In this document: positions 5,982 through 47,350 of the stretch, in pieces | Numbering within the stretch: position 1 is the first letter of the stretch | How the letters are laid out: every line of letters begins with the position of its first letter | Assembly: GCA_025459175.1 (NCBI GenBank) | Contig: JALORC010000012.1 | Span: 23,978 to 87,977 of the forward strand | Source: Planctomycetota bacterium | GTDB taxonomy: Bacteria > Planctomycetota > UBA1135 > UBA2386 | Direction of reading: 5' to 3' | Length of the DNA stretch: 64,000 bases | Translations under genes and position numbers: made by a program | Notes under the pieces: model-generated | What the model saw: only the letters and a program-made list of their open reading frames with translations | What the model was told of the DNA's origin: nothing | The model's database searches: none

Positions 5982-7187
5982 CTACCGGATCGTGAACCCG
6001 GCCGCGGTCGCGGCGGAGAACGCCGACGCAGCGCCGACCAGCACCGATTGCAGCACGCCCTGCAGCCCGACCAGCGACGGCTGCAGCGGGATCGCGATCG
6101 GGATCGCGACCGGACCGGTGATCAACCCACCGGTCAGGATGCCGAGATCGCCGCCGACCACCAGTTCGCCCAGCAGGTTCGGCAGCGCAATCGAGCCGAA
6201 GCCGGTGCCGAGCAACAGCACGAACGCCTGGTTGCCGACCTCGGCCCGGACCGTCACCGGGGTCGTGCTGCCGAGTGCGAGTTCGGTGACGCCCAACGGC
6301 AACTCGGTGCGCGCGATGGTGTCGGGCAGGCACGCCATCAGGAACGACGGCGCGCCCTGCACCGCGACCGCCGACGCCGCCGGGTCGGTGGTCAGCAACA
6401 CCGTGGCGCAGCAGCGGATCGAACCGGCGCTGCCGCCCACGTCGTGCACTGCGTGGCCGCCGAGCACGCCGAGCCACGCCCCGACTGGCGGCTGGCCGCC
6501 GACCAGATGGCAATCGACCGCCCACAGCGAGTCGCTGCCGCGGATCGCGATCGCATCGCCACCCTCGATCGACGGCGCATCCGAGCGATTGCCCTGCAGC
6601 ACCGTGCGCGTGAGCTGCACCGGCGTCGAGTCGACGAACAGCGCCGCCAACCCGGCGGTGCCGGCGGCCCCGTTGCAGCGATAGCGATAGTCGCCGGCGC
6701 GCACGCGATCGCACCACAGCGACTCGACGTCGCGCACCTCGATCAGGCCGTCGTAGGCGACGGGGCCGAAGCTGTTCGACAGCACTTCGACGGCCAGCAA
6801 GCGCACGTGGCCGAGCCCGTTGCCGGTGATGACGATCGCCGGCGCGGCGGCGGTCGCGGTCGCGCGCGCATGCGCGATGGTGACCTGCTGGAACGGCTGC
6901 AGGCCGGTGACGGTGATCGCCGGCGCGCCGCTGACCGTGAACACCGCGCCGGCACCGCTGCTCTGGTTGCCGATCACCGCGAGCTGCTTGCCCTGGATCA
7001 CGAACGGCGCGTAGGTGCCCGGGTCGACTTCGATGACGTCCCCGTTGGCGGCCGCATTCACGGCCGCCTGGATGTCGGCGAACGCGCGAGTCGGTCCGAC
7101 CTGTCGCACGATGCCCTGCGCGGCGAGCGGCGCCGGCAAAAACCACCACAGGGTCGCCGAGGCGACGGCAGCGATCCGGATCATCAT
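5982..7187 (-). CDS. Secreted right-handed beta-helix-like protein that shares the family C-terminal module
   Basis: Start chosen at MMIRIAAVASATLWWFLPAPLAAQ (signal peptide). GDVIEVDPGTYAPFVIQG resembles a pectate-lyase-like N-terminal turn. The C-terminus PLQPSLVGLQGVLQSV...AAGFTIR matches the module seen in three other secreted proteins here. Confidence 0.5.
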   Translation of the reverse strand: MMIRIAAVASATLWWFLPAPLAAQGIVRQVGPTRAFADIQAAVNAAANGDVIEVDPGTYAPFVIQGKQLAVIGNQSSGAGAVFTVSGAPAITVTGLQPFQQVTIAHARATATAAAPAIVITGNGLGHVRLLAVEVLSNSFGPVAYDGLIEVRDVESLWCDRVRAGDYRYRCNGAAGTAGLAALFVDSTPVQLTRTVLQGNRSDAPSIEGGDAIAIRGSDSLWAVDCHLVGGQPPVGAWLGVLGGHAVHDVGGSAGSIRCCATVLLTTDPAASAVAVQGAPSFLMACLPDTIARTELPLGVTELALGSTTPVTVRAEVGNQAFVLLLGTGFGSIALPNLLGELVVGGDLGILTGGLITGPVAIPIAIPLQPSLVGLQGVLQSVLVGAASAFSAATAAGFTIR

Positions 7188-7402
7188 CGCACCATCGAAG
7201 CCGGGTTCGTCGCAGCTGGCAATCCACTGCCGACGTCGGTCACCGCACCTCGCTCTGGGTGACGACGGTGCGGATTTTCGACCATGTCGCTGCACCCTTT
7301 GCCGGCGTCCCCGAGATCGTAGGGCACCTCCTGATGGTCGATCCCGCGCCCCCACCCACACACCTGCCCACCCGCGGCGATCGGACCGCGACCGCGGCCG
7401 GC

Positions 7403-7867
7403 ATGCGCCCGGCCCTGTGGCGCTACCTGCGCGTGCTCGGCGCCGATGCGGCGACCGCCGACGACCTGGTGCAGGAGGCGTTCGTCGTGATGCTGCAGCG
7501 CGAGCAGTTCGATGGTTCGGTTCCCGGCGCCGTGTTCACGTTCCTGCGCAGCACGGCGCGGCACCTGTGGCTGCGCTCGCGGCAGCGCCGCAGCAGCGAA
7601 CGGGAGGTCGAGGAAGCGGATGCGGTGTGGACGGCGCGCTGCGGCGAGGGTCCGGGCGACGAGTATGTCGACGCCCTGCGCGCTTGCATGGCACAGCTGC
7701 CCGAACGCAGTCGCGCGCTGCTGGCGGCGACCTACGGCGACGGGGCTGGCCGCGCCGAGGCCGGCGAACGCGTCGGCATCGGCCGCGACGGCGTGAAGAG
7801 CGCGCTGCGGCGGCTGCGCACGTTCTTGCACGACTGCATCACACGGCGATTGGCGAGGACCCGATGA
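7403..7867 (+). CDS. ECF-subfamily RNA polymerase sigma-70 factor
   Basis: Region 2 (DDLVQEAFVVMLQR) and region 4 (GVKSALRRLRTFL). Its stop overlaps the next start (ATGA). Confidence 0.7.
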   Translation: MRPALWRYLRVLGADAATADDLVQEAFVVMLQREQFDGSVPGAVFTFLRSTARHLWLRSRQRRSSEREVEEADAVWTARCGEGPGDEYVDALRACMAQLPERSRALLAATYGDGAGRAEAGERVGIGRDGVKSALRRLRTFLHDCITRRLARTR

Positions 7868-9519
7868 ACCACTCCGATTCCGTCCGCGCGGCCGAAGAAC
7901 GTCTGCTCGACGCCGCACTCGCACAGCACTTCGCGAGCGCGTCCGCGGCAGCGCCGCCGGCGACGACGCCACGATGGCTGCTGGCCGCGCTGGTGCTGCT
8001 CGGCATCGTGGTCACCGCGGCCACGATGTGGCACACGCGCACCGCCCCTCGCGACGAAGCGCAGGACCCGCCGCCAGCCCCCTTGCCCACCGAGGTGACC
8101 GGCTCCGGCAAGACCGAGCTGCTGGCACTGCCGGTCGACACCGAGAACCTGCTCGCCAAGATCGTCGATCCGCGCGACCTGTCCACGGTCACACGCTTCA
8201 CGCAACTGCGCCGTTTGCGGTTGTCGGCGGAGCAGATCCACATCGCCGGCATCAAGTCCGGCAGACTGCATCCCCAGTGGAGCGATCCACCACAAGACCT
8301 GCTGGCCCCGCTTGCCACGCTGCCGCTACTGGAGTCGATCCATCTCCCGACCCAGCTGCGGGTCGCACCGGAGCTGCTGGCCCCGCTGGCCGCACATCAG
8401 ACCTTGCGTGAGGTGACGCTGGCCGGCTACGGGATCACGATCGACGGCAACCTGCGCGCCGTCCTCGCGGCGATCCCGAAGCTGCGCCATCTGCACTTGC
8501 ATGGCGTCGATATCGAGGGGTCTGTACTCGAGCATCTGACGGCCCTACCGCTCCATTCGCTCGAGATGGCATCCTGTTCGGGCCTCGATCCCACCGACTG
8601 GGCAGCACTGGTGACGATGCGCACTCTGCAGCACCTGTCGTTGCAGGACTGGAGCTACGACCAGCTGACTCGCTTCACGTTCCGAGAGGGGACCGAACAA
8701 CACGACGCCGCGTCGAAGCGTGTGTGGCATCCCACCGCGGAGCACATACGTGCACTGGCCGGTCTGCCGAACCTGCGCCGCCTCGAACTGCACCAGTGCA
8801 GCCTCGACGACGAGCAGTTCGCGGCACTGCCGGAGACCTTGAACGGCCTGAGCCTGCGCAACACCAGGCTGACGCCAGAGGGCATCGGCGCGCTCAGCCG
8901 GCTGGTGGCATTGCGCGAACTCCACTTCGACACCAGGGCCCGCGGCTACACGCTCGCCGACTTGTTCGCCCCCGACGACGAACCGGCCGCCGAGGCATTC
9001 GCAATGGCGATCCCCACGCTGCGACTGCGATCCCTCGAGTACCACGGTGCGCTGCCGCCATCGGTTGCGAACGCGATCGGCAAGCAAACGGAGTTGCGCG
9101 AGCTCACCATCGTGAGCAAGCGCCCGGCAGCGGACACGGCCACCACCTTGCTGCGCGCGCTGCGGCTGCACCGCCTGTCGTGGCAGGCGCCCGTCACCAG
9201 CGACCTGCTGCTGGCACTGGCGAAGCAACCGGACCTGCGCGAACTCGAGTTGCGCGCCGACGACATTGCCGACGTGACAGCACTCGCTGCGGCTCCGCTA
9301 CTGCAGAACCTGACCCTGACCAAGATGAGCATCGGTCAGGGCGTGACCACCGCGCTGCTGGCTCCACTCGCCAGCTCGAAGTCGCTGCGCACGATCGCGG
9401 TCGCCGTCAGCATCGAACGCGGCAGCAAGCACCCGACCGAGGCCGAGCTGCAGCGCGCCGTCGGCGAACGCATTCGCCTCCGACTGCACCGGTCCGAGTT
9501 CGTCACCGGCAAACGCTGA
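7864..9519 (+). CDS. Membrane anti-sigma-factor-like protein with an extracytoplasmic leucine-rich-repeat domain
   Basis: ATG overlaps the sigma stop (ATGA at 7864-7867). One TM helix (WLLAALVLLGIVVTAATMW), followed by repeated LxxLxLxxxxI/L units (LRRLRLSAEQIHIAG, LRHLHLHGVDIEG, LQHLSLQDWSY, LRRLELHQCSL...). Confidence 0.55.
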   Translation: MNHSDSVRAAEERLLDAALAQHFASASAAAPPATTPRWLLAALVLLGIVVTAATMWHTRTAPRDEAQDPPPAPLPTEVTGSGKTELLALPVDTENLLAKIVDPRDLSTVTRFTQLRRLRLSAEQIHIAGIKSGRLHPQWSDPPQDLLAPLATLPLLESIHLPTQLRVAPELLAPLAAHQTLREVTLAGYGITIDGNLRAVLAAIPKLRHLHLHGVDIEGSVLEHLTALPLHSLEMASCSGLDPTDWAALVTMRTLQHLSLQDWSYDQLTRFTFREGTEQHDAASKRVWHPTAEHIRALAGLPNLRRLELHQCSLDDEQFAALPETLNGLSLRNTRLTPEGIGALSRLVALRELHFDTRARGYTLADLFAPDDEPAAEAFAMAIPTLRLRSLEYHGALPPSVANAIGKQTELRELTIVSKRPAADTATTLLRALRLHRLSWQAPVTSDLLLALAKQPDLRELELRADDIADVTALAAAPLLQNLTLTKMSIGQGVTTALLAPLASSKSLRTIAVAVSIERGSKHPTEAELQRAVGERIRLRLHRSEFVTGKR

Positions 9520-9630
9520 TCCAGCAAGCTGCGGAACGGCACCACGCCCTGGCAACGGGCCTTGCGAACGCCACTACTCCGCTGCCGAGCGGCTTCCGAG
9601 CGCAGGCTGGCCGGCTGCCGGTTGCACGAA

Positions 9631-9647
9631 CCTAAACCAGTGGTTTA
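9631..9647. promoter_or_regulatory. Perfect 7-3-7 palindrome CTAAACC-AGT-GGTTTAG, a candidate AbiEi autoregulatory operator
   Basis: Seen directly at 9631-9647, 13 bp upstream of the abiEi ATG, in a locally AT-richer stretch. Confidence 0.4.
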
Positions 9648-9659
9648 GTTTTCTGCACC

Positions 9660-10250
9660 ATGCCCAGAGCCAAGAGTCGACCGTCAGGACCTGACTGGGA
9701 GGCACTCTACCAGCGCGCCGAGACCCAGGCCGGCCACTTCACACTCGCTGACGCGAGAGCCTGCGGCTACTCGTCGCAGTTGCTGCAGAAGCACCTCGCA
9801 GCGGGCCGCATGCAACGAGTCCGGCGAGGCATCTACCGACTCGCCCACTTCCCGATCACGGCACACGAAGAACTGGTCGCGCTGTGGCTCTGGTCGGATC
9901 GGCTCGGCGTGTTCTCACACGAGACGTCGCTGGCGCTGCAAGACCTGTCGGACGTCCTGCCGGCGCGCGTGCACATGACGCTACCGACCAATTGCCAGCG
10001 CCGGCGCCAGCAGGTCCCGCCCGGTGTCGTGCTGCACTACGCCGACCTGCCGGCTCACGCCAAGGCGTGGCACGAGGCGATTCCGCTGACGGCGCCGATC
10101 CAGGTTCTCACCGAGTGCGTCGAGGCGAACGTATCGCCTGAGCTCGTCGACCAAGCGATACGGCAGGCGCTGCGCCGCGGGCTGGTGGCTCGCGAGGCGG
10201 CCGCAGCACTGCGGATGCGGATTCGGCATCGAGGACGTCGGACCGCTTGA
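9660..10250 (+). CDS. abiEi: Type IV toxin-antitoxin antitoxin, AbiEi family (wHTH transcriptional regulator)
   Basis: N-terminal AbiEi_4-like pattern (FTLADARACGYSSQLLQKHLAAGRMQRVRRGIYRL). Stop overlaps the downstream start (ATGA). Confidence 0.7.
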   Translation: MPRAKSRPSGPDWEALYQRAETQAGHFTLADARACGYSSQLLQKHLAAGRMQRVRRGIYRLAHFPITAHEELVALWLWSDRLGVFSHETSLALQDLSDVLPARVHMTLPTNCQRRRQQVPPGVVLHYADLPAHAKAWHEAIPLTAPIQVLTECVEANVSPELVDQAIRQALRRGLVAREAAAALRMRIRHRGRRTA

Positions 10251-20009: not shown

Positions 20010-22211
20010 ATGCGTTCCCGCTTGTTGCTGTCGCTGGTGGTGTCTTGGGTCTCGTCGTCTTCGATCACTTGCCAGGAGGGTGTGCCGGCACCGCAGGGCC
20101 TGGTGCCCGAGCAGATGTGGTTCGCCCCCACTGCCGCGGACTGGCAGAAGCCGGTGGCGATCCGCTGGCAGCGCACCTGGGACGACGCGGTGCGGCTGTC
20201 GCAGCAGACCAAGCGCCCGATCCTGGTCTGCGTCAACATGGACGGCGAGATCGCCAGCGAACACTACGCCGGCGTGCGCTACCGCGACCCGGAGCTGGCC
20301 AAGCTGTGGGAACCGTACGTGTGCGTGATCGCGTCGGTCTACCGCCACACCCCGCGCGACCACGACGACGAAGGTCGCCGCATCCCGTGCCCGCGGCTCG
20401 GCCATGTCACCTGCGGCGAACACATGGCGATGGAGCCGATCGTCTACGAGAAGTTCCTCGACGGCAAACGCATCTCGCCGCGCCACATCATGGTCGAGCT
20501 CGACGGCAGCGAGGTCTACGACGTGTTCTACACGTGGGACACGCAGTCGGTGTTCGACACGCTGCGCGACGGCATCAAGAACCGCAAGCTGCAGGCGCCG
20601 CCGATCGTCAAGGGCGATCGTTCGATCCGCGAGCAGCTGCAGAGTCCCGACAGCGCCGATCGCGAGGCGATCGAGAGCATGTTCCGGGCCGCCACGCCGG
20701 AGCAGCGGCAGGAGCTGATGGCGCTGGCGCTCGCCGAGGGTGAGCGAGCGCCGATCGAGCTGCTGCGGCAGGCGGCGTGGAGCCTCGATCCCGAACTCGT
20801 CAAGCAGGCCCGCGCCGGCATGCTGCAGGCCGCCGATCCCGGCACCGTCGAGCTGATCGCCGACACGCTGAAGGCGCCGCTGCTGGCCGAGGAACGCAAG
20901 GCGTTGGCGCAGTCGCTGCGTCGCTTCGCCGGCAGTTCGGTGCGGGCGCAGAGTCTCGCCGCCGCGCACAGCGGCCTCGCCGGCGGCAGTTCGGCGATCG
21001 ATGCGAACAGCTGGAGCCAGGTGCTGGCCGGGCAGAGCTACGCGAGTGCCGCCGGCGCCGATCCGGCCGCCGCCGCCACCGCGCGCGACGAGGCGCTGCG
21101 CGACAAGCCGATGGACGCGACCGCGCGCCTCGACGTCGCCGAGTCGAACCTGCTGCAGGCGTTCGAGGTCACCGCCGGTGCCGGCCGCGGCAGCGTTCGC
21201 CTCGCCGCGCGGCAGCGCGAACTGCTGCTCGCCGATGCCAGCCGCCATCTCGACGCCGCCGCGGCGGCCGGTGCGGCCGGCTGGCGCCCGCTGGCGCTGC
21301 AGGCGCTTCTGCACTGCGAGCGGCAGCAGATGCCGAAGGCCTACGAGCTGGCGATCCAGGCCGCACCGTTGCTGCCGCCCGACGCGCCGGGCCGCGTGGC
21401 GATGGAGGTGCTGGCGCTGTTCGCCGCCGCCCGCCAGGAAGCCATCGTCGCCGCGGTGCGCAGCAAGCAGGAGTGGGACCCTGCGTGGATGACCGACATC
21501 CACACGACCTACAGCCTGCTGCGCCAGCACCCGCTCGGCACCGACCGGCAGGTCGCGATGCACTTCGACTTCCTGCAGTTCTTCGGCGCGCCGGACCTCG
21601 ACCAGCTGCTGCAAGCGGGGCTCGAGCGCTTCCCGGCCTCGGCGCTGCTGCACGAACGGTGGCGCCAGCGGCTGCTCGAGCAGCGCGGTCCGGATGGCCT
21701 CGAAGCCGCCTACGCCGAGCGCCTCGCCGCGACCTCGGCGACACCGGCCGAGGCGTGGTTCGCCGGCTATGCGAGCCTGTGCGCCGCCGAGGCGCATCGC
21801 CGCACCTCGCAGCCGGACGCGGCCGCGGCGGCCTACCAACGCGGCATCGGCCATTTCGAACGCTATGCCGCGGCCAGCGGCAACAGCGACGGTGCGCACT
21901 ACGTGGCGATGGCACACGGCGGTCTGGCGCGGCTCCGGCTGCAGCAGGACGACCTGCCCGGCACGTTCGCCGCGCTGCAGCGCGTGTTCGCGATCGCGCC
22001 GGCGGCCGCCGCCGCCACCGACGGTCTCGGCATCACCGCGATGCAGACCGCCGAGATGCTGCGCGGCAAGGCCCTCGACCGGAAGGACGAGGCGCTGCTG
22101 GCGCAACTGCAGGCGGCGCTGCAAGAGCTGCCGCCGGAGGCGTTCGAACTGCCCGAGTACGAGCGGGCGTCGCGCGGTCAGGGCAACGGCGGCGCTCGCC
22201 GCCGCCGCTGA
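20010..22211 (+). CDS. Secreted thioredoxin-fold (Thioredoxin_7-like, no CxxC) domain protein with a long alpha-helical repeat region
   Basis: Signal peptide. KRPILVCVNMDGE...YVCVIASV resembles a DUF255/Thioredoxin_7 fold lacking the redox Cys pair, followed by about 500 aa of Ala/Leu-rich helices. Confidence 0.4.
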   Translation: MRSRLLLSLVVSWVSSSSITCQEGVPAPQGLVPEQMWFAPTAADWQKPVAIRWQRTWDDAVRLSQQTKRPILVCVNMDGEIASEHYAGVRYRDPELAKLWEPYVCVIASVYRHTPRDHDDEGRRIPCPRLGHVTCGEHMAMEPIVYEKFLDGKRISPRHIMVELDGSEVYDVFYTWDTQSVFDTLRDGIKNRKLQAPPIVKGDRSIREQLQSPDSADREAIESMFRAATPEQRQELMALALAEGERAPIELLRQAAWSLDPELVKQARAGMLQAADPGTVELIADTLKAPLLAEERKALAQSLRRFAGSSVRAQSLAAAHSGLAGGSSAIDANSWSQVLAGQSYASAAGADPAAAATARDEALRDKPMDATARLDVAESNLLQAFEVTAGAGRGSVRLAARQRELLLADASRHLDAAAAAGAAGWRPLALQALLHCERQQMPKAYELAIQAAPLLPPDAPGRVAMEVLALFAAARQEAIVAAVRSKQEWDPAWMTDIHTTYSLLRQHPLGTDRQVAMHFDFLQFFGAPDLDQLLQAGLERFPASALLHERWRQRLLEQRGPDGLEAAYAERLAATSATPAEAWFAGYASLCAAEAHRRTSQPDAAAAAYQRGIGHFERYAAASGNSDGAHYVAMAHGGLARLRLQQDDLPGTFAALQRVFAIAPAAAAATDGLGITAMQTAEMLRGKALDRKDEALLAQLQAALQELPPEAFELPEYERASRGQGNGGARRRR

Positions 22212-22241: not shown

Positions 22242-24095
22242 TCAGTCCGGGCTGATGTACGAGCGGATGCCGTTGCTGGTCACCAGCCCGAAGCCGTTCT
22301 GGCCGTTCGGCAGGCTGAACGGCACCACCAGCGCACACGACTGCGCGAACAGCTCGAAGCCGGTCGGCACGCCGGCCGGAATGTCGAACGTGACCGCCAA
22401 CATAGGCGAGCCGCCGACCAGGGTCTGCGTGAGGTTGAGCGCCAGCACGTGCGCACGGCAGCCGGGCGCGCCGAGGAAGCTGAGTTCGACACCCGGCACC
22501 GGCACGCCGGCGAGGCTGAGGATGTTGGCGCCGAGGTAGATGCCGCTGCCGGGCGCGGCTTCCGGGATGTTGGTGGTCGTGTAGGTCACCGTGGTGCCCG
22601 AGCTCGCGGTCGACCGCGGCGCCGGCGTGGCCGACAGCTGCAGCGCCTGCCGATCGGGCGAGGTCGTGCGCGGCAGTGCCGTGGCCAGCACGATCGAGCC
22701 CGGATCCGCCGAGGCGCCGCCCGGCGAGAAGCCGATCACGTGGCCCGAACCGAACTGGCTGGTGGTGTTGTCGTCGATGTCGACCCAGACCAACCGGACC
22801 TGGCCGGAGCCGAGGTTCAGCTGGAACTGCAGCGTGCTCGGATTCGCGATCGGCGCGGGCGGGAAGTTCTCGACGCCGTCCCAGGTGATGCAGGCGACGG
22901 TGTCGGCACCGACCAGCACTTCCTCGTACTTCACCCGACCGCTGCCGACCTCGGTCGGGTTGTAGTCGTGCCAGGACCAGAACGCGGTGCGGCCGGCGGC
23001 GAGCAGGGCCGCTGGCGTCGGCGTGTAGGGATTGGTGCCAGGGAAGTTCTGCGGCACCGGCCCCAGCGACACGATGCCATTCGCGTGCACCCGGAGGTCG
23101 GTGGCGGCACCGAACGGCGACGGCAGCGGCTGCGACGGCGTGACGGTCGTGTCGCCGTCATCGGCGATCACCAACGTCGTGGCGGCGCCGGTCGGCGCGA
23201 TGTAGCTGCCACCACCCCAGACCGCGGTGTAGCCGTTCGTGGTCGGCGTCAGCACCATCGACTGGCCGGTCAACGCCGCGGCCGCTGGCACGGCGGTCGC
23301 GAAGCCCTGATAGAACGACTCGACCGCCATGTCATAGCAGCCCTGGCCGTAGCTGGTGTGCGACGCCGGCAGCGAGCTCAGCACGTCGAAGCCACCACCG
23401 CCGTTCGGCGTGAAGCGCAGGCAGCGCAGCGCGAGATCGAAGGCACCGCCCGGGAACCGCTCGAACATCAGCTGCGTGGAGCCGCTGGTGTTGGCCTGCG
23501 AGAAATCGACCCCGGGCACCGCCGCGATGCCGTTGCCGGCCGAGACCCCGAGGATCACCGGGGCCACTGAATCGGTCGTCGGGCCGTAGGCGAACGACAC
23601 CTCGCCGGTGGCGAACAGTTGCGCCTGGATCGTGAACAGCGGCCCAGGGGTCTGGAACTGGATCGCGTTCTGCCAGGTGACGACGAATTTGCCGGGCAGC
23701 GTGTTGTTGATCCAGACGGCGCCATTGTTCGCCGCATCGAGCACCAGATCGCGCCAGAACGGAGCGATGCGCGGCGGCTGGCCGGAGTTGCCACGCAAGT
23801 TGGTGAGCTGGGCCGCGGCGTTGGTCGAGAAGCCGGTCGTGGTGGCGCCCGACAGCGCGCCATTGGTCAGGAACACCACGCCGTTGGTCTGCACGTGTGC
23901 GTGGGTGTAGCTGGCGGCGACCCCACCGATCGGAAAGGCGAAGTTCAACGGCTGCAGGTCGAACAGCTCGTCGTCACCGACGCCCGGTGCGTTGGCGCCG
24001 CGCGGGGCCAACACGCCGAGGTTGGTTTCGAAACACTGGGCCGACAATGCGGGCACCAGCAAGACTGGCAACAAAACGGAGGCGAGAGACTTCAT
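22242..24095 (-). CDS. Secreted protein with NIDO-like motifs and the shared C-terminal module (paralog of the 43911-45638 protein)
   Basis: Signal MKSLASVLLPVLLVPALSAQ. ETNLG...GDD, QTNGVVFL and PRIAPFWRDL motifs. C-terminus LFAQ...GLVTSNGIRSYISPD. Confidence 0.55.
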   Translation of the reverse strand: MKSLASVLLPVLLVPALSAQCFETNLGVLAPRGANAPGVGDDELFDLQPLNFAFPIGGVAASYTHAHVQTNGVVFLTNGALSGATTTGFSTNAAAQLTNLRGNSGQPPRIAPFWRDLVLDAANNGAVWINNTLPGKFVVTWQNAIQFQTPGPLFTIQAQLFATGEVSFAYGPTTDSVAPVILGVSAGNGIAAVPGVDFSQANTSGSTQLMFERFPGGAFDLALRCLRFTPNGGGGFDVLSSLPASHTSYGQGCYDMAVESFYQGFATAVPAAAALTGQSMVLTPTTNGYTAVWGGGSYIAPTGAATTLVIADDGDTTVTPSQPLPSPFGAATDLRVHANGIVSLGPVPQNFPGTNPYTPTPAALLAAGRTAFWSWHDYNPTEVGSGRVKYEEVLVGADTVACITWDGVENFPPAPIANPSTLQFQLNLGSGQVRLVWVDIDDNTTSQFGSGHVIGFSPGGASADPGSIVLATALPRTTSPDRQALQLSATPAPRSTASSGTTVTYTTTNIPEAAPGSGIYLGANILSLAGVPVPGVELSFLGAPGCRAHVLALNLTQTLVGGSPMLAVTFDIPAGVPTGFELFAQSCALVVPFSLPNGQNGFGLVTSNGIRSYISPD

Positions 24096-34231: not shown

Positions 34232-35068
34232 TCACGCCTCGGCCGGTGCTGCCGGCGGTTCCAACCGGGGGCCGTCGACGTCGTCGGTCAGGATCTCCTC
34301 GACGTCGAGCTGGCGGCACTTGCAGGCGGTGCCGAGCAGCGTCGCCAGCGACGGCTGCGTGCGTTCCTCGTCGCCGGAGATCCACTCCTTCACGTAGGTG
34401 CCGTGCTGGCAGACGACCCGCAACTCGTAGGCACCGTCGGCCATCGGCGTCAACGCCAGCACCTTCAGCTGGCGCGGCCGCTCCAGGTCGGCGCGGCGGT
34501 GCGACACCCGCTGCGGCGTGCGCTGCAGGATGGTGCCCGGGAACGCGAGCGCCGCGGCGAGCGCGTCGGGACTCGGCGGCGCCGCCACCGCGACCTCGGC
34601 CCGGTAGACCTTGTCGAAGTGCGTCTCCTTCCAGTAGACGACGCGGGCGCGGCCGACGCGCACGAACGGCTGCAGCTCGATCTGGCCCTCGCTGCGGGCC
34701 TCGATGTCCCGGCGCAGCGCCTCGAGATCGACGTCGGGATTGCGGGCCCCCACCACCTCGAACACGAACGGCCGCCCGCGCCCGAGCATCAGCACGTCGA
34801 TGTCCTCGCGGCCAGCACCGTGGAAGCGCCCTTCCTTGGCCTGCATCAGCGGCACCACCCGCCGCCCGATCAGCTCCTGCACCGACTCCCGGGTCAGCTT
34901 GCCGAAGCCCTGGCAATCGGGGCAGTCGCGCTTGCGCCGGCGATCGCCCTTGCAGCGCGGGCAGAAGAACACGGTCTGGGGCAGGCCGCGCCGCAGCTTG
35001 CGGTAGCGCGACTCGAGCCAGAGGTTGGAACGCGGGCGCTGGCCCGGCAGCGGAACGGCATCGGCCAT
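34232..35068 (-). CDS. Pus10-like tRNA pseudouridine synthase (archaeal/eukaryotic type)
   Basis: Zn-ribbon CPRCKG...CPDCQG followed by GREDIDVLMLGRGRPFVFEVVGARNP, which matches the Pus10 catalytic-Asp block. Confidence 0.55.
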   Translation of the reverse strand: MADAVPLPGQRPRSNLWLESRYRKLRRGLPQTVFFCPRCKGDRRRKRDCPDCQGFGKLTRESVQELIGRRVVPLMQAKEGRFHGAGREDIDVLMLGRGRPFVFEVVGARNPDVDLEALRRDIEARSEGQIELQPFVRVGRARVVYWKETHFDKVYRAEVAVAAPPSPDALAAALAFPGTILQRTPQRVSHRRADLERPRQLKVLALTPMADGAYELRVVCQHGTYVKEWISGDEERTQPSLATLLGTACKCRQLDVEEILTDDVDGPRLEPPAAPAEA

Positions 35069-35138
35069 CGATCGGCGCAAGCGAACCGCCGCCGGCTCGC
35101 GGAGGCAAGAGGCGAGCTGCGCCGGCGGCGCTCGCGGC

Positions 35139-35570
35139 TCAGCTGGTGCGACCGCCCGCTGGCGCCGGCGACCGCGCCGGCTTGCGCAACGAGGAGTTCT
35201 GGCGCTCGGTGCGGCGCTCGAGGAAGCGCCCGAGCAGGCCGAAGAACTCACGCGCCGCGATCGGCGTCGGCACGAACGAATGGATGTTGTACTTCGTCTT
35301 GTCGACCGCCATGTCGCGCACGTTGCGCGGCGCCGTCAGCACGAACAGCTCGGTCGTGGTGTCGAACGAGCGCAGGTGGTGCAGCAGCTTGACGGTCTCC
35401 TTCAGGCGCGGATCGACGCCGAGGAACACCGCGTCGAAGTGCCGTCCGCGCACCTCGTTGATGCCGGCATGGCCCTGGCCGACGGTGACCTGGAACTCGG
35501 GAAACTGCTGCAATCCGACCTTCACCTGGTCGCGGATCAGCGGGTCCTTCTCGACGAGCAGCACTTCCAT
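35139..35570 (-). CDS. Stand-alone response-regulator receiver domain
   Basis: LLVEKD...D54-like FDAVFLGVDP and TxxK (FVLT...K) layout, 143 aa. Confidence 0.7.
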   Translation of the reverse strand: MEVLLVEKDPLIRDQVKVGLQQFPEFQVTVGQGHAGINEVRGRHFDAVFLGVDPRLKETVKLLHHLRSFDTTTELFVLTAPRNVRDMAVDKTKYNIHSFVPTPIAAREFFGLLGRFLERRTERQNSSLRKPARSPAPAGGRTS

Positions 35571-36666: not shown

Positions 36667-37818
36667 ATGAAGATGCTCGCCTCGCTCGTCGCCACCGCCG
36701 CGGTGGCAATTCCCTTCCTGCCGGCGCAGAACCAGGCCCTGCAGCTGACCACCGGTACCGACGGCGGCGTCGAATACCAGTTCGACGCGCGCATGGTGCC
36801 ACCGACCGGCATCACCGTCGAAGCCTGGATCACCTACGACGACAGCACGGTGCCGACCGGCCAGGGCTACTACCCGACGATCGCCCGCCAGAACATCGCG
36901 CCCAGCACCGAGAGCTGGAACTTCCGCGTCTCCGCCGCCACCACCGGGGCGCGCAACCTGCAGCTGATCATCCGCACCAACAACGGCTTCTTCGCGGCCA
37001 CCTACAACTTCGCCCCCGGCGAGTTCCTGGCGCCGACCCACGTCGCGGGCACGTTCGACGGCACCACGATCCGCGTGTTCAAGAACGGCCTGCAGGTTGC
37101 GCAGGGCGCGGTGCCGGTGCTCAGCGAAGTGCTCAACAACGGCGGTCTGATGCGGATCGGCAACGGCGATCCGGTGGCGCCGGGCAACGAGACCTGGAAC
37201 GGCACCATCGACGAGGTGCGCATCTGGCCGATGGCGCGCAGCGCCGGCGAGATCACCGCGACCCTGAACCAGGAGCTGCTCGGCCTGCCCGGCGGCGTGC
37301 TGACGTTCCCGCTGAACGGCAGCTACGACTCGAGCGACCTGACCGTGGTCGGCACCGCGTTCGGCACCAGCGCGTTCGTCGCCGGCACCACGCTGCCGCC
37401 GGCCGCCGCGGTGCTGGTGCCGCTGGCGCAGCCGTCCAGCAACTGCGCGCGCAAGCCGCAGATCCTGGTCGGCAGCCTGCCGCAGATCGGCAACCCCGCG
37501 TTCGCGTTCTGGTGCGTGCGCGGCCCACGACCGGCGACTTCGCCGGCCGGTGTCGTGTTCGCCGCCGACAGCCCGGCCCCGGTCGGTCAGCCGCCGGTCC
37601 TGGGTCTCGACCTCGCCTTCGACCTGGCGACGATCGCCGCCTCGGCGGTGCTGGCGCCGCCGACCAACGCGCTCGGCAATGCGACCTTCCCGCTGCCGAT
37701 CCCGAACCAGCCGTCGCTGGTCGGACTGGGCTGGGTGTTCCAGTTCGGCTTCCTCGACGCGCAGTGCGGCCCGCAGGGCATCACCACCAGCGACGGCCTG
37801 CAGTTCGTGATCCAGTGA
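36667..37818 (+). CDS. Secreted LamG/concanavalin-like lectin-domain protein carrying the shared C-terminal module
   Basis: Signal MKMLASLVATAAVAIPFLPAQ. LamG_3-like VEAWITYDD...FDGTTIRVFKNGLQ...NGTIDEVRIW. C-terminus PNQPSLVGLGWVFQ...TTSDGLQFVIQ. Confidence 0.6.
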   Translation: MKMLASLVATAAVAIPFLPAQNQALQLTTGTDGGVEYQFDARMVPPTGITVEAWITYDDSTVPTGQGYYPTIARQNIAPSTESWNFRVSAATTGARNLQLIIRTNNGFFAATYNFAPGEFLAPTHVAGTFDGTTIRVFKNGLQVAQGAVPVLSEVLNNGGLMRIGNGDPVAPGNETWNGTIDEVRIWPMARSAGEITATLNQELLGLPGGVLTFPLNGSYDSSDLTVVGTAFGTSAFVAGTTLPPAAAVLVPLAQPSSNCARKPQILVGSLPQIGNPAFAFWCVRGPRPATSPAGVVFAADSPAPVGQPPVLGLDLAFDLATIAASAVLAPPTNALGNATFPLPIPNQPSLVGLGWVFQFGFLDAQCGPQGITTSDGLQFVIQ

Positions 37819-43910: not shown

Positions 43911-45638
43911 ATGCGCACCACCACTCTGCTCGCCGCCGCGGCGTGCTTGACTTCCTCTCTCCTTGCCCAGGGCGCCCTGTCGGCCCCCTGCTTCGTCACC
44001 AACCTCGGCGCCCCGCTCGGTCTCGGCGACGACCAGGTCGCGGCCAACAACGCCCTCGGCTTCACGTTCCCCGGCCCGGGCGGCACGTCGGTGACCAGCA
44101 TCGACATCAGCAGCAACGGCTTCGTCTGGCTCGGCAGCAATGCGAGCGCGGACTGCTGCAACGGCGACGTCACCACCTTCCTGACCGATACCCCGCGCAT
44201 CGCGGCGATGTGGACGGACCTCTACCCGCCGGGCAACGGCGACGTGTACTTCAACACGTTCCCGGCCAGCGGCACACAGCCCGCCAGCGCCGTGATCACC
44301 TGGAACGACTGCCCCGAGATCGGCACCACCGACCTGCAGAGCATCCAGCTGCAGCTGTTCGCCGACGGCTCGTTCGTGATCGCGTACGACCTGCGTTGCG
44401 GCAACCTGAACCACGACGCACTGGTCGGGGTCACCGAAGGCGTGGCGGCCGTCGCCAACCCGATCGACTTCGCCGCCATCACGGGAGGTGCACCGCACCT
44501 CAGTGGCACCAACCCGACCATCCACGAGCTGCTGCCGTTCTCGTGGGACCTCGCCGGCAAGTCGTTCGCGTTCGTGCCGAACGGCAGCGGCGGCTACATC
44601 GTGCTCGATCGGCCGAGCTGCGCATACGCGGACGTCCGCACGCTCGGCGCCGGGTGCCCGCAACCGCTGGTGGCCTACGAGCTGTTCCAGACCCCGGCCA
44701 CGATCGACCTCGCGAACACCGCGCTGGAGTTCATCCCGACCGGCGGCGGCTACGTGACGCTGCCCTCCACCGGCTTCTTCACCGGCTACGCCGGCGCGCA
44801 GACGTTCTTCGACGACGAGGTGAAGGGCCCGTTCGCGTTGCCGTTCCAGTTCCCGTTCGGCGGCGGGCTCGTCAACTCGATCGACATCAGCAGCAACGGC
44901 TTCGTCTGGCTGTCGGCCGGCAACGCCGATGCGCGCTGCTGCAACGGCGACCCGGCCACCTTCCTGGCCGACCCGGCGAGCATCGCCCCGCTGTGGCAGG
45001 ACCTCAATCCGTTCGCCGGTGGCACGATCTACTTCGACCTCGACCCCAACGGCGTCGAAGCCCACGTCACCTGGCTCAACGTGCCGGAGTACCTCACCAA
45101 CAACCTGAACACGGCCCAGCTGACGCTGCGCAGCAACGGCAGCTTCCGGTTCTCGTACGGCAACGTGGTGAACCAGAACCACGACCTGCTGGTCGGCGTC
45201 TGCCAAGGTGCCGCCCAGATCGATCCGGGCAGCTCGGACTTCAGCGCCGGTCCGGTGGTGGTGAACTCGGGTGGCATCCCGCTGCGCCTGCAGGCCCAGG
45301 CCAATGTCCGCCCGGTGCTCGGCACGACGTTCGCGATGGACGTCGACCAGATCACCGCCGGCTCGCTGATCGGCATCATGGCGTTCGGTGCCACCACCTT
45401 CACGCCGGGCCTCGACATCTCGTCGATCGGCATGCCGGGCTGCCAGCTCTACGCGTCGCTGGACGCACTGCTGTCGTTCCCGCTGACCGGCTCACCGACC
45501 ACCTACTCGTTCCCGGTGCCGAGCAGCCCGACGCTGACCGGGCTCGTGTTCTACGCCCAGGCCGCGACGCTGACGCCCGGCGTCAACCAGCTCGGCCTCA
45601 CGGCGTCGAACGGCCTCGAGCTGACGCTCGGCCTGTAG
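43911..45638 (+). CDS. Secreted protein with tandem NIDO-like domains and the shared C-terminal module
   Basis: Signal MRTTTLLAAAACLTSSLLAQ. Two copies of IDISSNGFVWL...CCNGD...IAAMW/IAPLWQDL. C-terminus GLVFYAQ...TASNGLELTLGL. Confidence 0.55.
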   Translation: MRTTTLLAAAACLTSSLLAQGALSAPCFVTNLGAPLGLGDDQVAANNALGFTFPGPGGTSVTSIDISSNGFVWLGSNASADCCNGDVTTFLTDTPRIAAMWTDLYPPGNGDVYFNTFPASGTQPASAVITWNDCPEIGTTDLQSIQLQLFADGSFVIAYDLRCGNLNHDALVGVTEGVAAVANPIDFAAITGGAPHLSGTNPTIHELLPFSWDLAGKSFAFVPNGSGGYIVLDRPSCAYADVRTLGAGCPQPLVAYELFQTPATIDLANTALEFIPTGGGYVTLPSTGFFTGYAGAQTFFDDEVKGPFALPFQFPFGGGLVNSIDISSNGFVWLSAGNADARCCNGDPATFLADPASIAPLWQDLNPFAGGTIYFDLDPNGVEAHVTWLNVPEYLTNNLNTAQLTLRSNGSFRFSYGNVVNQNHDLLVGVCQGAAQIDPGSSDFSAGPVVVNSGGIPLRLQAQANVRPVLGTTFAMDVDQITAGSLIGIMAFGATTFTPGLDISSIGMPGCQLYASLDALLSFPLTGSPTTYSFPVPSSPTLTGLVFYAQAATLTPGVNQLGLTASNGLELTLGL

Positions 45639-45673: not shown

Positions 45674-47350
45674 CTAGTGATCCCGCCAGGGATTCGGCCG
45701 CCGCTGCAGATCGCGCGTGTGGAACGACTCGGTGGCGCGGTAGATCCAGACCACGAAGCGATCGCCCGGCTGCCCGTCCAACGGCCGGCGGCCGGAGTAG
45801 TAGTGGAACAGCAGCGAGAACGGCACCGGGTCACCGACGCCGATCTCCGTCACGCTCTCCATCAGCCCGGTCCACTGGAACCACGGCTCCTCGGCGCCGT
45901 CGATGCTGCCGATCGCGATCAGGTCGCCCTTGCGCACCTCGCTCGCGCCCTCGAGCAACGGCCGCATGCCGGCGCGCGGCGCGTAGAACTCGAAGCCCCA
46001 GCCGCCGGTGAACCACACGGTCGCGCCCGGCGCGTGCTGTTCCGCGTAGGCCTTGGCGCGGTCGACGGCGACCACGCAGGCGCGCCCCTCGAGAGCATCG
46101 ACGCCCTGGTAGAACAGCCCCATCAGCACGGTGCCGATGGCGACCAGGCGCAGCGCCCGCGGCGGTCGCAGCCGGCGCACGGCGAGCCAGCCGGCGACCA
46201 CCGTGAACGCGATCACCACCAGCATCGCCCGCCGCGCCGCCGGGAACGGCGACACCACGAGACTCGAGATCACTTCGCCGAGCAGCCAGCCGACCAGCAG
46301 CGTGCGGTTCGCGGCGGCCTGGCCGAAACCGCCCCGACGCCAGGCGCCCACGGCCGAGCCGGCGATCCGCACCACCACCCCGGCCAGCACCGACCAGGTC
46401 AGCGTCGCCATCACCACGTAGGCGATCGAATCGACGGCGCCGTCGGCGATGGTCCGCGCGTCCCGATCCGGGAACCACGCGATCAGCAGGTGGCCGACGC
46501 AGTAGATGGCGACCGCCCACCACCAGATCGTCTGGCGCAGGCCCAGCGCGCGCAGGCCGAGCAGCGCCGCCGGCAACCCGAGCACACCCACGTGCAGGTA
46601 GAGCCCACGCAGCAGATGCGGCCAGTCGCGCCGCTGCGTGATCTCGAGCTGGCGCATGAAGTACGAGCCGCCGCCGTGCGACCACGCCACCAGCCCCTCG
46701 ATCGACAGCGCGGTCGCGATCGCCACCGCGAGCCCCACCGCCAGCTCGCGCCAGCGCCGGTAGACCAGCCCGCTGAGGCACCACGGCGCGAAGAACCCCA
46801 TCGCCGAGTACTTGGTCTGGAACGCCAGCCCGAACAGCACGCCCGCCAGCACCGCGAGGCCGAGCTGCCGCCGTTCGTAGGCACGCAGCAGCACCGCGAA
46901 GCCGGCGAAGCCGAGCGCCAGCATCGGCACCTCGAGCATCAGGTTGACGCCGGGCAGCACCGCCGGACCGAGCGCGATGGTCGCCAGCAGCGGCACCGTG
47001 TGCCGTCGCACCAGGCGCTGCAGCAGGCACAGGATCGCGTAGCAGAACAGCCACTGCAGCGGCAGGTACCACGCCTTCCAGGCCACCGGCGACTCGCCGA
47101 ACAGCGCGATCGCCGGCGCCCAGTAGTACGAGTTGACCGGCGCCACCATCACGTTCCAGGCCGCCTCCGGCTGCTGGTGCCAGACGATGTCGAACTCGAA
47201 CGGCTGCAGCGGGGCCCGGGCTACCTGCGCGGCGTAGTAGTGATGGCAGACGTCATCGACGGTCAACGGCTCGAAGAGGTTGACCAGGTTCATCACCAGC
47301 GCCACGACCAGGGCGCACAGCGGCAGGGAGCGAGAGGTCGGGGCCGGCAT
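45674..47350 (-). CDS. GT-C fold membrane glycosyltransferase (ArnT/PMT-like), second copy in the window
   Basis: At least 11 TM helices, Trp/Tyr-rich, with a C-terminal soluble domain. The overlapping plus-strand ORF is compositional noise. Confidence 0.5.
   Translation of the reverse strand: MPAPTSRSLPLCALVVALVMNLVNLFEPLTVDDVCHHYYAAQVARAPLQPFEFDIVWHQQPEAAWNVMVAPVNSYYWAPAIALFGESPVAWKAWYLPLQWLFCYAILCLLQRLVRRHTVPLLATIALGPAVLPGVNLMLEVPMLALGFAGFAVLLRAYERRQLGLAVLAGVLFGLAFQTKYSAMGFFAPWCLSGLVYRRWRELAVGLAVAIATALSIEGLVAWSHGGGSYFMRQLEITQRRDWPHLLRGLYLHVGVLGLPAALLGLRALGLRQTIWWWAVAIYCVGHLLIAWFPDRDARTIADGAVDSIAYVVMATLTWSVLAGVVVRIAGSAVGAWRRGGFGQAAANRTLLVGWLLGEVISSLVVSPFPAARRAMLVVIAFTVVAGWLAVRRLRPPRALRLVAIGTVLMGLFYQGVDALEGRACVVAVDRAKAYAEQHAPGATVWFTGGWGFEFYAPRAGMRPLLEGASEVRKGDLIAIGSIDGAEEPWFQWTGLMESVTEIGVGDPVPFSLLFHYYSGRRPLDGQPGDRFVVWIYRATESFHTRDLQRRPNPWRDH

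Follow-up and report, generated by a model that had tools for sequence, protein, structure and literature searches.

Two proteins of 575 and 617 amino acids (aa) were identified in a 64,000-nucleotide stretch of a Planctomycetota genome (assembly GCA_025459175.1, contig JALORC010000012.1, positions 23,978 to 87,977), here called the window, and their repeated units appeared to be divergent, minimal members of the superfamily of NIDO, the nidogen-type domain. This homology was supported at the family level. The reading that we favor, with a probability of about 0.7, is that both are secreted, all-beta, multi-domain surface proteins with two tandem divergent and minimal NIDO units, disulfides, a C-terminal surface module and a binding role. 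An initial annotation of the window had pointed to NIDO-like motifs, duplicated in the 575-aa protein and present in the 617-aa paralog, and had regarded bona fide bacterial members as notable.

Both open reading frames (ORFs) were found where the initial annotation had placed them (Table 1), and the motifs quoted there were all recovered in the two proteins. The motif sequence was SIDISSNGFVWLGSNASADCCNGDVTTFLTDTPRIAAMWTDL in unit 1 of the 575-aa protein, SIDISSNGFVWLSAGNADARCCNGDPATFLADPASIAPLWQDL in its unit 2, and HVQTNGVVFL...PRIAPFWRDL in the 617-aa paralog. The window had 71% GC, and its real reading frames were marked out by a GC content at third codon positions (GC3) above 0.9. The frames of both ORFs gave GC3 values of 0.91-0.94. 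The 575-aa protein was identical to the GenBank entry 'MAG: hypothetical protein MUC36_05085 [Planctomycetes bacterium]', where MAG stands for metagenome-assembled genome.

The duplication inside the 575-aa protein was far beyond chance. When its N-terminal part was compared with the remainder by BLASTP, residues 40-181 aligned with residues 301-438 at 48% identity over 143 aa (E 6e-34). The paralogy was also real, since the 575-aa and 617-aa proteins aligned over their full length at 28% identity (BLASTP, E 1e-25). A hidden Markov model (HMM) of the family matched the 617-aa paralog at E 7.3e-92. Each of the two unit HMMs matched the paralog twice, at E 2.9e-32 and 2.4e-11 for N1 and at E 4.4e-21 and 7.6e-17 for N2. 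Therefore, both are two-unit proteins, and the second unit of the paralog had not been noticed in the initial annotation.

Pfam scans were performed with the NIDO model PF06119, which has a length of 186 positions and a curated gathering cut-off of 25 bits. A set of 128 homologs of the 575-aa protein was found, and 64 of them, 31-73% identical, were aligned. About half of the 128 carried a precomputed PF06119 label. PF06119 matched 52 of the 64 aligned homologs at E<=1, and the best E value was 5.8e-11. Eight members were checked singly and gave 25.1-42.1 bits, with matches in both unit regions. The best scorer (P0029) reached 42.1 bits as a whole protein, where residues 67-155 were aligned to model positions 5-112. 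An example from the unit 2 region among the checked members had residues 325-419 aligned to positions 5-90. Separately, Reg_prop, CBM96 and KH_6 were rejected as Pfam identities, with scores far below their cut-offs and short motifs only, as was an NCBIfam dehydrogenase identity at 16 bits against a cut-off of 330.

Profile comparison with nidogen was performed using hhalign. The bacterial side was a profile of 32 units (A2) and a broader profile of 58 sequences, and the animal side was a profile of nine fetched vertebrate nidogens (A3) and an N-terminal fragment of human nidogen-1. This fragment was confirmed by a Pfam scan, in which its NIDO domain was complete (207 bits, positions 2-186 of 186). 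A2 aligned with the human fragment at a probability of 80.6% (E 1.3e-5, 134 columns) and with A3 at 88.1% (E 3.1e-6). The 58-sequence profile gave 86% against nidogen (E 4.8e-6). As a negative control, a profile of the C-terminal module gave 0.1% against A3. The alignments covered 118-134 columns and were collinear across seven motif pairs, in which bacterial GDD was paired with nidogen GDD, SSNG with TTNG, IAPxWxDL with VAPFLADL, GxVYF with GKVYY, ITWxxV with VTWESV, TxQxQL with NTFQAVL, and LVGxSxG with VVAFSQG. A search with the human NIDO sequence returned vertebrate fragments only and zero bacterial proteins, and searches with the bacterial unit profile returned zero animal proteins. The link between bacteria and animals therefore rests on profile methods. 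These results upheld, at the family level, the NIDO resemblance that had been proposed from motifs.

The anatomy of the 575-aa protein was examined using an AlphaFold2 model. A single-sequence model was useless (predicted local distance difference test, pLDDT, 34), and a model based on the alignment of 64 homologs was used instead. It had a mean pLDDT of 92.9 and was nearly all beta. The order of secondary structure was alike in both units, with three strands, a short helix and six strands. Domain limits were set from this model, the repeat boundaries and domain HMMs. At the N-terminus, Ala19 was nearly invariant and Gln20 invariant in the 64-member family, and both were invariant in the 12 closest members. 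The predicted signal peptide is thus probably cleaved after Ala19, before Gln20. The model had a low-confidence helix at residues 2-18. A hydrophobic stretch followed by A-Q was also observed at the N-terminus of the 617-aa paralog and of a window protein with a LamG domain. As had been proposed, both proteins looked secreted, judged from the hydrophobic signal-like N-terminus, the A-Q site and the conserved cysteines read from their sequences.

Adjacent cysteine pairs were located in the motif CCNGD of each unit, Cys82-Cys83 in unit 1 (44154-44159) and Cys343-Cys344 in unit 2 (44937-44942). The pair was kept in 56 of the 64 members in unit 1 and in 42 of the 64 in unit 2. A single Cys never occurred, and the usual replacement was D-F or D-Y. 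This all-or-none pattern suggests that the pair forms a vicinal disulfide in each unit. C27, C237, C249 and C511 were at least 94% conserved among the 64 members, as expected of an extracytoplasmic protein. In the linker between the units, the motif YE.F..DL...F.P.G.GGY.V occurred twice, at residues 205-232 (44523-44606) and 256-284 (44676-44762), with a BLASTP E value of 0.003. The same linker motif was also seen between unit 2 and the C-terminal module in distant family members.

We propose that the protein would be exported by Sec with cleavage before Gln20, and that disulfides would stabilise it, among them a probable vicinal Cys-Cys bond within each unit. The C-terminal module would direct it to, or hold it at, the cell surface. 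There, the two NIDO units would be ligand-binding or adhesive modules, not enzymes. This binding role was suggested by analogy with RemA-family adhesins and animal matrix proteins. In both units, polar and aromatic positions were strongly conserved, and D40, D41, N69, W101, D103, Q146 and Q148 in unit 1, as well as D301, D302, N329, W362, D364 and Q403 in unit 2, were kept in 55-64 of the 64 members. The near-invariant Asp-Asp, Asn-Gly, Trp-x-Asp and Gln-x-Gln motifs would be compatible with a conserved metal-binding, ligand-binding or even catalytic site. The units might instead be enzymatic or metal-dependent, with the invariant polar residues as a catalytic or cation-binding site shared from bacteria to animals. 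In nidogen, the counterparts of the conserved positions are GDD, NG, DLD and NTFQ, and a purely structural scaffold would rarely be conserved in this way across kingdoms. However, no catalytic activity was reported for any NIDO domain in the literature found, the proteins had no similarity to enzyme families in Pfam, NCBIfam or PDB, and the partners of the unit elsewhere were adhesin-like and anchor-like. An enzymatic or metal-dependent role was thus considered improbable, and binding at the surface was preferred.

The NIDO domain of animals (PF06119 / SM00539) is found in nidogen-1/2, alpha-tectorin, MUC4, SNED1, Drosophila mesh and C. elegans DEX-1. Like the bacterial unit, which is predicted to be extracellular, it is a beta-rich extracellular domain, of approximately 150-190 aa, and its motifs follow the same order: GDD, xNG, (I/V)APFxxDLD, GxVYY/F, VTWxxV, NTFQxxL and VxFSxG. 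Tandem NIDO domains also occur in animals, as DEX-1 has two. However, the bacterial unit is shorter. It is without the helical insert of approximately 20 residues between the GxVYF and VTW strands, and the last approximately 35 positions of PF06119 have no counterpart in it. The adjacent Cys-Cys pair of the bacterial unit is lineage-specific and is not found in animal NIDO. The partner domains are also different, being an Ig-like linker and the C-terminal module in the bacterial proteins, and EGF, AMOP, vWD and ZP in animals. To our knowledge, no NIDO structure has been solved.

A second likeness was found when the unit profile was searched against PDB sequences. The match, at E 6.7e-12, fell on residues 51-176 in chain 8gl6_D and took in ISENG and FPFWDD. 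This chain was named RemA by the depositors in the PDB sequence file. The trapped substrate in the translocon structures was identified as RemZ (Fjoh_0803), which is homologous to the gliding adhesin RemA, and its C-terminal domain alone was resolved (PMC10994853). RemA itself has been described as an adhesin of the cell surface that includes a lectin domain. Like the window proteins, RemZ of Flavobacterium johnsoniae has a NIDO-like unit, here at the N-terminus, and it is a secreted surface protein with a C-terminal secretion domain. It differs in being a 1436-aa protein of Bacteroidota that has only one unit and whose C-terminal domain is of the type 9 secretion kind. Its unit, at residues 51-176, is outside the resolved part of the structure and gave no template. 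Models of the type 9 secretion tail (Por_Secre_tail), CHU_C and lectin domains did not match the window proteins, and the N-terminal unit was the only part common to RemZ.

Single-unit bacterial proteins were a third point of comparison. In P0124, P0144 and P0179, the NIDO-like unit was placed directly behind the signal peptide and matched the unit profile at E 1e-14 to 1e-47, and PF06119 matches were weak or significant in some of the single-unit proteins. They differ from the window proteins in having one unit, a length of approximately 250-300 aa, other C-terminal sorting signals and an origin in other phyla. P0124 and P0144 carry PEP-CTERM, and P0144 is named 'PEPxxWA-CTERM sorting domain-containing protein [Pseudomonadota bacterium]'. 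The unit is combined with a type 9 secretion tail in P0179 and with CarboxypepD_reg in P0174 (Planobispora).

The C-terminal module of the window proteins was followed with an HMM built from residues 445-575 of the 575-aa protein. This HMM matched the 617-aa paralog (E 4.7e-14) and the window LamG protein (E 2.9e-7). In the window and the fetched loci, 47 ORFs were matched, nearly all with the match ending a few residues from the stop codon, and the clearest exception was at 7708-10041 of locus L021. When 1.84 billion representative proteins were searched with the module profile, 13,869 relatives were recovered at E<=1e-3, of which 5,529 reached E<=1e-10. In all of the top 150, the match ended 0-5 residues from the C-terminus, and these proteins were 100-1002 aa long. 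The passengers of the module included NIDO-like units, LamG, Rax2/DUF5122-type beta-propellers and many regions that had no Pfam match. The named members were all from Planctomycetota MAGs. The module resembles the type 9 secretion C-terminal domains (Por_Secre_tail, PF18962) in its beta-rich nature, in its strictly C-terminal place and in the many unrelated secreted passengers that it follows. However, no sequence similarity to Por_Secre_tail was detected, the module is longer (approximately 130 aa), and its named members are restricted to Planctomycetota. No relative of the module was found among PDB sequences.

Several observations weighed against the reading of the proteins as surface-bound NIDO proteins. 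The whole 575-aa and 617-aa proteins did not match PF06119 even at E<=10. Among the isolated units, unit 2 of the 575-aa protein gave 17.9 bits (E 0.0033) and unit 1 of the paralog 14.5 bits (E 0.037), all below 25 bits, and unit 1 of the 575-aa protein and unit 2 of the paralog gave no PF06119 match when scanned alone. The HMMER matches in the family covered only approximately positions 3-112 of 186, and the hhalign alignments reached VxFSQG at approximately position 150, so that the domain is incomplete compared to the animal model. The hhalign probabilities to nidogen were lower than the conventional 95% and were moderate support on their own. Membership of the window proteins themselves would therefore follow by transitivity through their orthologs, together with the profile-profile scores. 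NIDO is also without an established function even in animals (bioRxiv 10.1101/2020.07.27.223107). The neighbours of the 575-aa gene, namely valS, a RecQ-like helicase, a methyltransferase, RNase HII, AcpH and an RmlD-like reductase, were all housekeeping genes and gave no operon-level clue to function. As for the module, 26 of its sequences had no relevant match in Pfam and NCBIfam, including PEP-CTERM and Por_Secre_tail, at E<=1-10. The module may be the sorting or anchoring domain of this Planctomycetota lineage, equivalent to PEP-CTERM or type 9 tails, judged by its position and behaviour. The same unit precedes those signals in other phyla, and this is an argument by analogy.

The initial annotation had named a PF06119 search as its check, with the absence of a significant hit and an unrelated fold as the refuting outcome. 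For the window proteins alone, the scores below the cut-off came close to that outcome, and what stood was the match of the family. Hence it was considered whether the resemblance is at the motif level only, by chance or convergence, and the domain belongs to an unrelated bacterial family. The weak scans of the window proteins fit this explanation, as do the drop of hhalign to 45% with a full-length family profile and the single RemZ fragment, which was not aligned to a shallow nidogen profile (0.4%). However, PF06119 was matched independently by 52 of the 64 homologs, the eight checked members were at or above the cut-off, and both units were matched. The nidogen alignment, collinear over seven motifs, had an E value of approximately 3e-6, compared to 0.1% probability for the control. 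Chance or convergent resemblance was judged very unlikely, and divergent NIDO units were retained as the explanation.

The distribution of the architecture was examined by a locus search with one genome per species and a profile from a 12-sequence alignment. The two-unit architecture was found at 28 loci, 26 of them in uncultured MAGs labelled Planctomycetota or a planctomycete subgroup, one in a WOR-3 MAG and one in an unclassified bacterium. This architecture was essentially confined to Planctomycetota. Tandem paralog arrays of two to four NIDO-module genes were present at L011, L012, L017, L018, L019 and L025. This indicates a local expansion of the gene family in related Planctomycetota MAGs. 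At least five bacterial phyla had the single unit, and the proteins that carried it were always exported or surface-directed. The distribution, which the initial annotation had proposed to look at, thus spoke for bona fide bacterial members, and the NIDO-like unit is a widespread bacterial surface-protein module and no recent animal import. The spread over at least five phyla, together with the host-like base composition, excluded contamination and strongly argued against recent transfer from animals. NIDO is known in the literature from animal proteins, but a recent horizontal acquisition from an animal or an assembly contamination is hardly credible given the host-typical composition (71% GC, GC3 0.94), the predicted bacterial signal peptide, the valS synteny kept in other MAGs, the deep family (31-73% identity) with tandem arrays in Planctomycetota, the position of the unit behind bacterial sorting signals in at least five phyla, and the absence of the animal-specific insert from the bacterial unit.

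Table 1. Features of the two NIDO-like proteins, other carriers of the C-terminal module and adjoining genes, in window coordinates.
Feature	Position	Strand	Basis
Gene of the 575-aa secreted protein	43911..45638	+	ORF; signal peptide, then two NIDO-like units with a small beta linker domain between them, then C-terminal module
Predicted Sec signal peptide, residues 1-20 (MRTTTLLAAAACLTSSLLAQ)	43911..43970	+	read from the sequence by eye
NIDO-like unit 1, residues 28-185	43992..44465	+	internal repeat; unit HMM E 9.4e-73; ortholog region matches Pfam NIDO positions 3-112; hhalign to vertebrate nidogen
Linker beta domain, residues 186-299, with conserved C237 and C249	44466..44807	+	two short motif copies
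NIDO-like unit 2, residues 300-442	44808..45236	+	internal repeat; orthologs match NIDO here; 17.9 bits (E 0.0033) alone
C-terminal module, residues 445-575, approximately 130 aa, at the protein end	45243..45635	+	module HMM
Gene of the 617-aa paralog	22242..24095	-	ORF; architecture as in the 575-aa protein (signal peptide, both units around a linker, C-terminal module)
Paralog NIDO-like unit 1, residues ~23-192, with QTNGVVFL and PRIAPFWRDL	23520..24029	-	unit HMM E 2.9e-32; 14.5 bits (E 0.037) alone
Paralog NIDO-like unit 2, residues ~317-468, more divergent, without the CC pair	22692..23147	-	unit HMMs E 2.4e-11 and 7.6e-17; no Pfam match alone
Paralog C-terminal module, residues ~473-617	22245..22679	-	module HMM E 4.7e-14, to within 4 residues of the stop codon
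Third module protein, with a Laminin_G_3 (concanavalin-like) domain in place of NIDO units	36667..37818	+	Laminin_G_3 71 bits, E 1.4e-19, residues 38-196
C-terminal module of the LamG protein, last ~115 residues	37462-37809	+	module HMM E 2.9e-7
Candidate fourth module carrier, divergent	5985-7535	-	weak module match at the C-terminal end, E 0.017; no Pfam family
Predicted 558-aa membrane protein (judged by hydrophobicity), convergent to the NIDO gene	45674-47350	-	no match in Pfam or among PDB sequences
733-aa protein with a signal-like N-terminus, adjoining the paralog	20010-22211	+	no Pfam family, no PDB sequence relative

The order of valS, the NIDO gene and the convergent membrane-protein gene was kept in the closest orthologs (L002 and L009), and the NIDO gene also adjoined a membrane-protein gene in L001 and L015. 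A tblastn search against plasmids gave one marginal, unannotated match. Elsewhere in the window, the ORF at 34235-35335(-) was strongly matched by Pus10_C (186 bits, E 1.1e-54). Pseudouridine synthases of the Pus10 type typically belong to archaea and eukaryotes, so that a bacterial one may merit attention.

Bacterial entries for NIDO exist in Pfam and InterPro. In the literature searched, no paper on bacterial NIDO was found, and NIDO was treated as an animal matrix domain without a clear function, for example in a study of SNED1 (bioRxiv 10.1101/2020.07.27.223107). The claim that bacterial members are notable therefore held only in part: the literature places NIDO in animals, and routine Pfam scans already label many bacterial proteins. 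Since Pfam already labels many bacterial proteins as PF06119, close homologs of the 575-aa protein among them, this is a gap in the literature and not a discovery of principle. The window proteins are a divergent member and a new architecture of a known domain family, which is a modest find. The undescribed C-terminal module is a more original by-product than the NIDO finding. Neither the NIDO outgroup nor the module changes current understanding without experimental follow-up. We also considered a broader scenario, in which NIDO was first a widespread bacterial surface module, later adopted by animals for their extracellular matrix, and in this Planctomycetota lineage has expanded into tandem gene arrays, coupled to the C-terminal module as a new sorting or anchoring signal. 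This is conceivable, although we regard it as rather unlikely.

NIDO occurs in medically relevant animal proteins, including nidogens, MUC4, alpha-tectorin and SNED1. The bacterial homologs form a large and diverse set and can serve as an evolutionary outgroup, from which the universally conserved residues (GDD, NG, WxDL and TxQ) can be read. The small single-domain bacterial members should be easier to express and crystallise than animal NIDO proteins. The bacterial homologs also hint at an ancestral role of NIDO at cell surfaces, and the C-terminal module that these proteins share may be a marker of secreted or surface proteins in a little-known lineage of Planctomycetota.

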